DNA from: Sphyrna mokarran
Taxonomy: Eukaryota
Direction: 5' to 3'
Length of the DNA stretch: 64,000 nt
Assembly: GCA_024679065.1 (NCBI GenBank)
Contig: JAGIQG010000009.1
Location: 100,812,001 to 100,876,000 of the forward strand
The notes below the pieces were generated by a model. That model was not told the DNA's origin. It did no database searches and saw only the letters and a program-made list of their open reading frames with translations. Each line of letters begins with the position of its first letter. The stretch's first letter is position 1. The translations under genes and the position numbers were made by a program. Shown here one piece after another: positions 21,691 through 60,946 of the stretch.

Positions 21691-21716
21691 GGCGGGAGTA
21701 ACTATGACTCTCTTAA
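21691..21716 (+). rRNA. 26-nt 28S rRNA fragment (upstream half of the R2 target); not an rRNA gene
   Basis: ggcgggagtaactatgactctcttaa is identical to the conserved 28S sequence that precedes ggtagccaaatg. Confidence 0.95.
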
Positions 21717-21850
21717 ATAGGGAAGGAGAGTCATAGTTACAATAGCTGTGTGAATTTTATCGCTCCTATAACACAGTGAGTTGCGCCTCCCCGATGGCCC
21801 CGTCGGCAACATCACTACTATTTGGGCGAGCAGTGATGGCTAAAGCAACT
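21691..21850 (+). ncRNA. HDV-like self-cleaving ribozyme 1 (intact-looking)
   Basis: P1 ggcggg 21691-96/cccgtc 21799-804; P2 agttgc 21779-84/gcaact 21845-50; P3 gcc/ggc with L3 tccccgat; P1.1 cc/gg; P4 catcact/agtgatg; J4/2 gctaaa with candidate catalytic C21840. Confidence 0.88.
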
Positions 21851-21914
21851 GGCCAAGGAACGAATCGCGGATGTAGTTGCATGTCTGTACCCAGTCAGAC
21901 TGCAGTTGCAAACT

Positions 21915-22086
21915 GGTGGATTGAGATTGGCTTTCATCCATTCATGCGGAAGAAGGGTCCATCCAGAATTGCCTATCTCAAGTAATTGTGCGAATCTTCT
22001 GGTTTCTATAACACAGTGAGTCAATCCCTTCCGCGGGACCCACCTGGTGTCGTCTCCAAGGGCACAGGAGATGGTATTCCATGACT
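21915..22086 (+). ncRNA. HDV-like ribozyme fold 2 (diverged)
   Basis: P1 ggtgg 21915-19/ccacc 22040-44; P2 agtca/tgact; P3 ccc/ggg with L3 ttccgc; P4 tgtcgtctcc/ggagatggta; J4/2 atypical (ttcca). Confidence 0.7.
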
Positions 22087-22099
22087 GGCCGAGAAACAA

Positions 22100-22305
22100 A
22101 TAGCGGGTGCGACTCATGCCCATACTATGACCACTCTCACCGGACTGTCAGCCAGGAGTGGTGTTGCTAGAGTAGTACTTGGTATGTTTAGCATAACTGT
22201 GGTTATCTTGGCGTTCTAAACCACAGTGAGTAAAACCTCACTGAGGTCCCGTAGGGTATTCAGGACTTCAAGCTAGCAGGTGATTGTCCTGAAGGGAATC
22301 TGACT
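22100..22305 (+). ncRNA. HDV-like ribozyme fold 3 (more degenerate)
   Basis: ctgtggtt/aaccacag stem then tgag; P3 acc/ggt with L3 tcactga; cccgta-gg; P4 ttcaggac/gtcctgaa; tgact. P1 5' strand uncertain and J4/2 non-canonical. Confidence 0.55.
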
Positions 22306-23060
22306 AGTCGAGAACTGCCAACGCCATTCTGTACCTGTAAACCTGGTAACCTGAAAGAAACTATGACTTGACAGGTCCCGTGCTGTTCCCGGGATAGTTG
22401 GTGAAATGCAGGTGACCGATGCGATCGCGCCTATCAAGGTAGCAGAAGCCTTACCGAGACATCCAGCCCAGGCGACTGGCTTCGACGGGAGACGATTGTA
22501 CCCGTATCTGGAGTGACGCAGCAAATGGACTGTGGTGCCCCGGCTCGTTCCTGATGATCGCTGGTCAGACGATGATGAAAAGGGGAAGGTTCGCGCGAAC
22601 CTCTAGAGACTCTTGTAAATTGACATTTGTCTTCTATGCCCCGAGAGATTGGGTGTGGTTAGACAGCGATGGGTGCAGCTCCCGGGTTGTGCGAGCGAGC
22701 TTCATACCGCGGTTGCGTTTTCGGTATTGTTCGGTTGTTCGTTGTACGTTTGTGTGTGTTACTTAATAAATCCGCTTTGTAACCAGATGATGTTTTATGG
22801 GTAAACGGCTCGGAGCAAACGAGCAAAAACTAACATACACGACAAACGCTTCCCAGTGATGTAACTCAATCCGCTTGTCTGCACTTGTGGTGGTTGTGGC
22901 TACATCGTTCTGAGATCAATTCCCCGATTCTGCCAATGGCCTAAGGGCTGTGATACCATCTGGTGGAAGACACTCTGATTCCCTTCAGAAGTGCGTGGCA
23001 CATGTCGATGAGCGACAACAAAACTCGAACAAGACGGTCTCCGAGTTTTTTCTCGAAAAT

Positions 23061-28459: not shown

Positions 28460-29280
28460 GCCAGCCATTCACCTACCTATCCATCCATCCATCAAACTNN
28501 NNNNNNNNNNNNNNNNNNNNNNNNNNNNNNNNNNNNNNNNNNNNNNNNNNNNNNNNNNNNNNNNNNNNNNNNNNNNNNNNNNNNNNNNNNNNNNNNNNNN
28601 NNNNNNNNNNNNNNNNNNNNNNNNNNNNNNNNNNNNNNNNNNNNNNNNNNNNNNNNNNNNNNNNNNNNNNNNNNTCTGTCCATCCATCCATTGACCCATC
28701 CGTCCATTCATCAGCCAGCCATTTAACTTTTCATCCACGCATCCATCAGACCAAGCCATCCCGCCATTAATTCATTCATCCATGCATCCACCCTCCCATC
28801 CATTGTCCCATCCATCAATCCATCCATGCATTGATCCATCAACCCTTCCATCTAGCCCTCCATTATTCCATCCATTCTTGCATGCGTTCTGTCGTTCCAT
28901 CCATGTCACCATCCATCCGTCTATTATCCTTCCATTCCTCCATCCATCAATCCATTCGTCCACCTCTCCATCCATTCATCCAACTCACAATGCATCGATC
29001 CATCCAACCAATAATCCATCCATCCAACCATCCACTCCCCACCGGTCCAATTAACCATCCATAAATCCATCCTCTTTCCATCAATTCATCCATCAGTCCT
29101 TATGCCCATCTATCTATAAGTCCATTCATCCATCCATCCATCGAACCATCCATCCATCCATTCATGCATCCACCCTTCCATCCACGGATCCGTCCATCTG
29201 TCATCCGTTCACCACCCATCTATTCTTTCATTCATCTATGCATTCATTGATCCATGCATCCATTCTTTCACCTATCCTTT
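28460..29280. repeat. Degenerate (CCAT)n microsatellite containing an assembly gap (N 28499-28674)
   Basis: Visible directly. Confidence 0.95.

Positions 29281-60868: not shown

Positions 60869-60946
<78 letters not shown>
60869..60946. repeat. (AC)n microsatellite, ~39 units
   Basis: Visible directly. Confidence 0.99.

Follow-up and report, generated by a model that had tools for sequence, protein, structure and literature searches.

Three ribozyme units, the inner two likely non-cutting, at the 5′ end of an R2-derived retroposon of Sphyrna mokarran

R2 ribozymes, R2-derived SIDEs and the compensatory changes between their ribozymes are already known (PMC3774820, PMC3414825). According to the accessible part of PMC3414825, Drosophila R2 SIDEs are ORF-less and combine a 5′ HDV-like ribozyme with the R2 3′ end, and their ribozyme differs from that of the helper by compensatory changes. 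The Sphyrna element described here is alike in these respects. The Drosophila SIDEs, however, carry one active ribozyme, are confined to rDNA and are rare, whereas the Sphyrna element has three folds, hundreds of dispersed copies and at least 13 successive subfamilies. The R2 ribozyme of PMC3774820 resembles the first of the three units, in which P1 is likewise formed from 28S bases and L3, P1.1 and the catalytic C are canonical, and leader duplications in a related family, family II, match the model in Figure 8 of that paper. In its accessible text, however, only the 28S leader is duplicated and not whole ribozymes, and no helix between a loop and the 3′ tail is described. Among large HDV-like ribozymes with J1/2 (P1.2) domains, drz-Agam-2 has a structured J1/2 beside P2, as here; the available portion of that report (PMC4908430) presents the distal P1 and P2 ends without a locking tertiary contact, whereas here a pairing of the J1/2 loop with the 3′ tail is predicted. 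R2NS elements are also R2 outside rDNA, but the reports, in the parts available, concern invertebrates and describe no non-autonomous partner. R2Br-deg likewise retains an inactive fold but, in the text available, is a single decaying ribozyme thought to have spread by recombination. Our literature search, conducted mostly outside subscription papers, supplements and Repbase, returned neither tandem HDV-like folds in an R2 derivative nor a loop-tail helix. The present analysis adds a distinction between covarying and frozen helices, a count of start sites, a P1 extension and the loop-tail helix.

A dispersed R2 SIDE-like element and its likely helper

We examined a stretch of 64,000 nt (the window) of contig JAGIQG010000009.1. 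An earlier note, made from the letters of this stretch, had proposed that three ribozyme units in it show compensatory base changes, that selection acted on their folds after duplication and that the second and third may be non-cleaving. The region concerned is the 5′ part of a 1,370-bp retroposon with the following overall features.

21691..23060, + strand: ORF-less R2-derived retroposon (SIDE-like) of subfamily IA, with ends common to dispersed copies
21691..21716, + strand: 28S-derived leader, starting at the -28 position
21698..21740, + strand: leader hairpin of 15 bp (inverted repeat) in unit 1 J1/2
23004..23060, + strand: R2-type 3′ terminus, and then a degenerate R2 target half-site

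Across the element (21691-23060), no ORF on the + strand reaches 120 aa, and similarity to the R2 ORF was found in 0 of 148 copies in the 1.3 kb downstream of the three units. The leader matches, at 25 of 25 nt, the 28S of the same genome in the part immediately upstream of the R2 site; the first 6 nt of the leader are the 5′ strand of unit 1 P1. The -28 position is the commonest R2 cleavage site in the accessible part of PMC3774820. At the other end, the 3′ terminus is 73% identical over 48 nt to the 3′ end of autonomous R2. With no ORF, a 5′ R2-type ribozyme and a 3′ end common with autonomous R2, the element has these traits in common with R2 SIDEs; we class it as R2 SIDE-like, with a spread beyond rDNA. 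Hundreds of copies are dispersed in the 2.77-Gb genome; the best 40 of 570 candidates are mostly near-full-length, 77-89% identical and located on many large contigs. A few relatives (L104-L106 and L113) end at the exact 28S R2 site with downstream 28S attached; for most of these passengers the site is degenerate (of 114 junctions, T 103, A 84, G 82, C 60 and C 65). The window copy belongs to the oldest subfamily, departs at 43 positions from the consensus of that subfamily and folds poorly in structure prediction. A peak of about tenfold in contig depth lies over the unit 2 core, as would be expected if that part is the most alike between families.

We also considered the R2 elements of the same genome. 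The downstream 28S 18-mer occurs in 16 places, and an R2-like 3′ end lies immediately upstream in 11 of them, which include the triple-unit relatives L104-L106 and L113 and the end of one R2 ORF (L111). The L111 protein matched a solved bird R2 protein with an E value of 3.8e-43, and a search with it gave at least 151 matches (the best 150 of 613 candidates were scored), several of which have intact frames of ∼1,350 aa. One canonical ribozyme core, the same as that of unit 1, was present in 11 of the 13 autonomous loci examined, and unit 2/3 motifs were present in none of the 13. A TAGCC-like 3′ flank is common to the passenger (114 junctions) and the helper (28 junctions). The dispersed, single-ribozyme autonomous R2 is likely the element's helper, and the common 3′ end and target bias point to probable mobilisation in trans by the R2 protein. 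We also considered an autonomous R2 with three ribozymes; none was found, with unit 2/3 motifs in 0 of 13 loci and 0 of 148 triples reaching an ORF, in a search restricted to R2 lineages other than the older ones.

The autonomous R2 elements at L154-L166 (e.g. L155) belong to a dispersed set of at least 151 places, where the sites are degenerate and TAGCC-like. Their proteins have three N-terminal zinc-finger-like motifs, and the open frame extends through the ribozyme. A SINE-like insert, which we take to resemble a V-SINE core, is common to family II passengers (L099) and the helper 3′ UTR (L155); the window's family has no such insert and a different 3′ body. This distribution suggests that 3′ parts may have been swapped beneath a constant 5′ triple. 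L104, L105 and L113 are dispersed and carry 40-100 nt of downstream 28S, L105 also 60 nt of upstream 28S; these flanks were possibly copied from rDNA read-through RNA.

Unit 1 and a predicted loop-tail helix

Loci were retrieved by exact core patterns (128 matches to the unit 2 word and 375 to the unit 3 word), and conservation was counted at sites outside the patterns. Removal of 37 partial and 29 duplicate loci from a set of 214 left 148 distinct copies in 13 subfamilies that run from IA (6.8% decayed), which holds the window copy, to IV (1.3%). Single dead copies can mislead claims of covariation; differences between subfamilies were taken as changes in the source lineage and singletons as neutral decay. 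The background for double changes was 4.1% over all pairs, and all P values are optimistic because the subfamilies are mutually related. Unit 3 P4, where gaps misregister the helix, was excluded from the consensus double-change test and enters the private-change comparison with 8 subfamilies only; by eye it is still paired. CpG decay as the only source of the doubles was rejected, since 4 of the 18 lineage doubles are CpG opposite CpG. No Rfam family reached threshold.

21691..21850, + strand: unit 1, canonical HDV-like R2 ribozyme, with covariation and a catalytic C
21746-76, + strand: unit 1 J1/2 stem
21779-84/21845-50, + strand: unit 1 P2
21785-87/21796-98, + strand: unit 1 P3
21799-804, + strand: unit 1 P1′
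21810-38, + strand: unit 1 P4
21839-44, + strand: unit 1 J4/2
21760-67 with 21856-63 (21760..21863), + strand: PT1, loop-tail helix of unit 1, one pair broken in the window copy
22000-07 with 22092-99 (22000..22099), + strand: PT2, putative loop-tail helix of unit 2, 6-8 bp
22208-17 with 22311-21 (22208..22321), + strand: PT3, putative loop-tail helix of unit 3, 10-11 bp, one double change

Unit 1 keeps L3, P1.1 and the catalytic C, the last in 145 of 148 copies. At family level P1-P4 and P1.1 give the nested double pseudoknot of the earlier note, with the catalytic C in J4/2; the window copy has lost one G beside P1.1. Among the subfamilies, 5 of 14 derived pair states in unit 1 helices are doubles, compared with 0 of 141 private changes (P=0.00017 against the background), so that in a larger alignment the covariation of this unit is significant. 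In real copies, two-sided changes occur at 7 pairs of unit 1 and its loop-tail helix, and the covariation score exceeds that of all 500 shuffles. Full-length copies start at or immediately after the -28 G, and from these junctions unit 1 likely cuts RNA at the 28S -28 site.

An additional helix was noticed post hoc, in an all-against-all complementarity scan, and joins the loop of each J1/2 stem to the strand just 3′ of P2. For PT1 (8-11 bp) it scores above shuffles in every one of the 13 subfamilies (P 0.002-0.03), prefers the cognate over permuted partners (P=0.0001), shows two doubles and appears in RNAalifold. The pairs of PT2 are invariant and not significant against shuffles, and PT3, with shuffle P values of 0.006-0.09, failed the test of cognate versus permuted partners (P=0.42). 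One homologous loop-tail pair is C-G in unit 1, U-A in unit 2 and G-C in unit 3. In autonomous R2 the helix is possible and no better than shuffles (P 0.47-0.85). The helix, which would close an extra pseudoknot at the far end of P2, is well supported in unit 1 only. We also tried a pairing of unit 3 L3 with a segment near 22345 and rejected it; changes in L3 are unmatched there. Further conserved helices lie 3′ of unit 3 at window 22325-22550 (22325-36/22437-49 and 22370-75/22382-87), with one double change each.

Subfamily III (L221, L233, L255 and others) is young and has a minimal leader. It lacks the 28S leader hairpin and has lost the unit 2 J1/2 hairpin as well; all three cores are kept, with two mismatches in unit 1 P2.

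Units 2 and 3: lost active-site bases and a nearly invariant core

21872..21910, + strand: hairpin between units 1 and 2, pair probability ∼1.0 in 13 of 13 consensuses
21913..22086, + strand: unit 2, ribozyme-derived fold, L3 and J4/2 non-canonical
22103..22305, + strand: unit 3, ribozyme-derived fold, first P1 pair A.A and P1.1 lost
22115-22186, + strand: unit 3 J1/2 hairpin, covarying

The departure of J4/2 from the catalytic consensus in units 2 and 3, which had been seen in the window copy, holds for the family: with the register set by counting back from P2, the catalytic position is A in 146 of 148 copies of unit 2 and G in 139 of 148 copies of unit 3. Neither unit has an intact P1.1, the CC of L3 being replaced in both. 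Unit 2 P1 has two extra pairs upstream that span the would-be cleavage site (21913-19/22040-46) and use the would-be P1.1 bases in 13 of 13 consensuses; such an extension of P1 would block cleavage. Two observations count against a loss of catalysis: unit 2 J4/2 retains two C residues near the catalytic position, and in III and IV, the two youngest subfamilies, unit 3 carries a C displaced upstream by one base. As an indirect measure of cutting, we counted 5′ starts at 71 anchors in 70 loci (of 375 unit 3-word matches); 40 of these loci came from matches not previously retrieved, a choice that biases the set toward truncated copies. None of the 71 starts lies within 8 nt of the P1 of unit 2 or 3; 60 anchors reach the leader (9 of them, by reading of the junctions, in the short-leader subfamily) and 11 are truncated at scattered points. 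The lost active-site bases and the absence of such starts fit the suggestion that units 2 and 3 are non-cleaving. A slow or conditional ribozyme in one or both, with residual catalysis as the object of selection on the core, would explain why unit 2 L3 and J4/2 are nearly invariant, and R2 active sites are flexible, the catalytic C and four bases excepted, as far as the accessible part of PMC3774820 describes them. We regard such activity as improbable: the 0 of 71 starts set an upper bound of ∼4%, the P1.1 bases of unit 2 are engaged across its scissile position in every consensus, and unit 3 has an A.A first pair and no C in register. Because P1.1 is disrupted, a true double pseudoknot in units 2 and 3 is doubtful from their sequences, and the protective HDV architecture may not form.

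Of the 11 5′ truncations, six lie 18-40 nt before unit 2 P1, inside the hairpin that separates units 1 and 2 (equivalent to window 21867-21900; L213, L214, L225, L249, L251 and L267), as if reverse transcription stalls there.

The motifs quoted in the earlier note were found at their places (unit 1 P2 21779/21845 and J1/2 stem 21746/21771; unit 2 P1 21915/22039 and P2 22019/22082; unit 3 J1/2 stem 22197/22219), but several of the bases compared belong to the window copy and not to its family. The P3 pairs are present, but the G-C in unit 1 is private, all subfamily consensuses having G.U, and ccc/ggg in unit 2 is the adjacent register, the homologous one being UCC/GGA. The G.U quoted in unit 1 P1 is private as well, with G-C in the consensuses, and in the J1/2 stem of unit 3 the 8th pair depends on a private G>A. 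The change of C-G to U-A in P1 is present, but it is CpG opposite CpG and two deaminations could yield it. Pairing is not kept throughout: the top pair of unit 2 P1 is mismatched (A.C in the window, A.G in most subfamilies), unit 3 P2 has an A.G mismatch private to the window copy, the first P1 pair of unit 3 is A.A, and 8 of 13 subfamilies have a broken first P3 pair in this unit, which leaves a P3 of 2 bp. Using the IA/IB consensuses, we found 11 derived states at 21 pairs homologous between units, namely 6 doubles, 1 single and 4 breaks, every break at a helix end. The compensatory changes between units are real, though thinly based: doubles are more frequent than under neutral decay (9 among 544 private changes), in a comparison of three sequences with helices picked for pairing and baseline copies that are far less diverged. 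The sixth J1/2-stem pair is U-A, C-G and G-C in units 1-3 and A-U in the helper. Common possession of both P2 doubles marks units 2 and 3 as sisters.

Covariation among the 13 subfamilies is a separate matter. P1, P2, P3 and P4 occur in HDV order in units 2 and 3, and 96% of cells are paired across subfamilies, without covariation. Of the 51 pairs proposed for these units in the earlier note, 44 are invariant, 1 is a double and 6 are breaks; covariation is not significant (P=0.32) and 325 of 500 shuffles reach the observed count. A larger alignment with no significant covariation was the outcome that the earlier note had named as refuting its proposal; for units 2 and 3 this outcome occurs, through a lack of variation and not broken pairs, and for unit 1 it does not. 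In contrast, the peripheral hairpins in and between units 2 and 3 have 9 doubles in 40 derived states (P=3e-5 against the background), and their covariation score was reached by 0 of 500 shuffles, but the pair count by 120 of 500; 4 of the 6 helices were recognised with the alignment visible, which makes this test partly circular. The hairpin at 21872..21910 has 96% of cells paired and 2 doubles. Outside the search patterns, only 2 of 52 sites of the unit 2/3 core vary among the 13 consensuses, compared with 64 of 109 sites in loops (P=1e-12) and, in the unit 1 core, 12 of 36 sites (P=0.0003), while private mutation rates are similar across classes (0.013-0.014 versus 0.017-0.021). Copies retrieved by the pattern of one unit retain the core of the other. 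By these counts the inner units are under tighter sequence constraint than the working ribozyme. Selection on the folds after duplication is supported, mostly by this near-invariance and by the peripheral covariation, and less by the evidence on which the proposal had been built.

The same counts bear on whether units 2 and 3 are mere relics, in which compensation dates from the period when each served as the active 5′ ribozyme, the subsequent constancy being due to brief divergence, biased retrieval or gene conversion. The between-unit doubles cannot be dated, exact core patterns were used for retrieval and the P1 change is of CpG type. Nevertheless, loops vary at 59% of sites between the same subfamilies, the constancy extends outside the patterns and to copies retrieved via the other unit, and hairpins of units 2 and 3 went on covarying after the subfamilies split; this reading was already disfavoured and we give it quite a low probability. 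Invariance without covariation, together with many copies outside rDNA, might instead point to DNA elements (promoter or enhancer) that enable transcription of dispersed copies. A TGAGTCA heptamer in both units resembles an AP-1 site, and both also have B-box-like words. However, unit 2 of subfamilies IA and IV carries an altered heptamer, there is no conservation of A-box-like words, and changes in the P2 3′ strand match those in the 5′ strand, a sign of pairing; a DNA function of the cores is very improbable.

Since unit 1 tolerates compensatory swaps, the constraint on units 2 and 3 goes beyond pairing, and their invariance suggests base-specific contacts or several partners. Invariance cannot reveal which strands pair. 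Nested folding gives unit 2 P1, J1/2 stem, P3 and P4 probabilities of 0.9-1.0 in most subfamilies; in single-sequence folding those of unit 3 P1, P2 and P3 are low or inconsistent, and the all-against-all scan found 68 alternative conserved helices. A different, shared or switching structure, with strands exchanged across units (J4/2 of unit 2 pairing with that of unit 3, and L3 of unit 2 with either an upstream GCGGA or P1 of unit 3), would account for the frozen loops. These cross-unit complementarities are invariant, a 5-bp match between two 7-mers has a chance of ∼0.9%, and the pairing of GCGGA with L3 reaches 0.5-0.7 in subfamily IE and the window copy. No cross-unit pair shows a double change, however; the pairs were chosen post hoc among many candidates and RNAalifold favours helices within units. 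We consider strand swapping unlikely.

Origin and possible use of the inner units

We favour, with some confidence, the reading that unit 1 cuts and that units 2 and 3 are former, non-cutting ribozymes kept by selection as folded RNA modules of a retroposon that borrows R2 protein. Source copies would be co-transcribed from rDNA-like sites, unit 1 would free the RNA from a co-transcript with 28S, and the R2 protein would copy it. New ribozyme modules would be added at the 5′ end, displacing the older units 2 and 3; in family II, duplication of the leader is ongoing. Since a cut inside the RNA would take away the 28S leader, loss of cutting in units 2 and 3 would be favoured. The likeliest role left to the two units would be to keep an uncapped template intact and compact, or to dock R2 protein (PMC11331408, PMC12222951), with the template thus competing for the helper; the loop-tail helix may clamp each unit. 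According to the accessible part of PMC11331408, a stable HDV-like fold helps R2-mediated insertion, possibly without a need for cleavage, and a catalytic C-to-A change lowered insertion. An inactive core, then, need not stabilise well. Autonomous R2 needs one ribozyme only.

A more ambitious version, which we hold only tentatively and think somewhat less probable than its opposite, is that an R2 parasite repeatedly stacked 5′ ribozymes and exapted the inner ones as non-catalytic modules, each clamped by a loop-tail pseudoknot new to HDV-like ribozymes, held more tightly than the working ribozyme and raising template fitness for an R2 protein of relaxed rDNA specificity. If the favoured reading is correct, units 2 and 3 would show, in nature, a ribozyme fold put to new use with its chemistry gone. 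The 13 dated subfamilies amount to a built-in mutational scan, and the dispersed helper and passenger record a relaxation of R2 target choice. In the available portions of PMC11331408 and PMC12222951, the 5′ modules of R2 templates limit R2-based gene insertion; naturally selected non-cleaving modules and a 3′-tail clamp would for this reason be testable parts.

Several minor features were observed as well. L241 consists of two passenger copies head-to-tail, and L100, L107 and L108 are noisy repeated copies beside 28S pieces on a small contig. Elsewhere, the window contains a degenerate TCCA-type tandem array at 28679-29263 and an AC microsatellite at 60869-60946.
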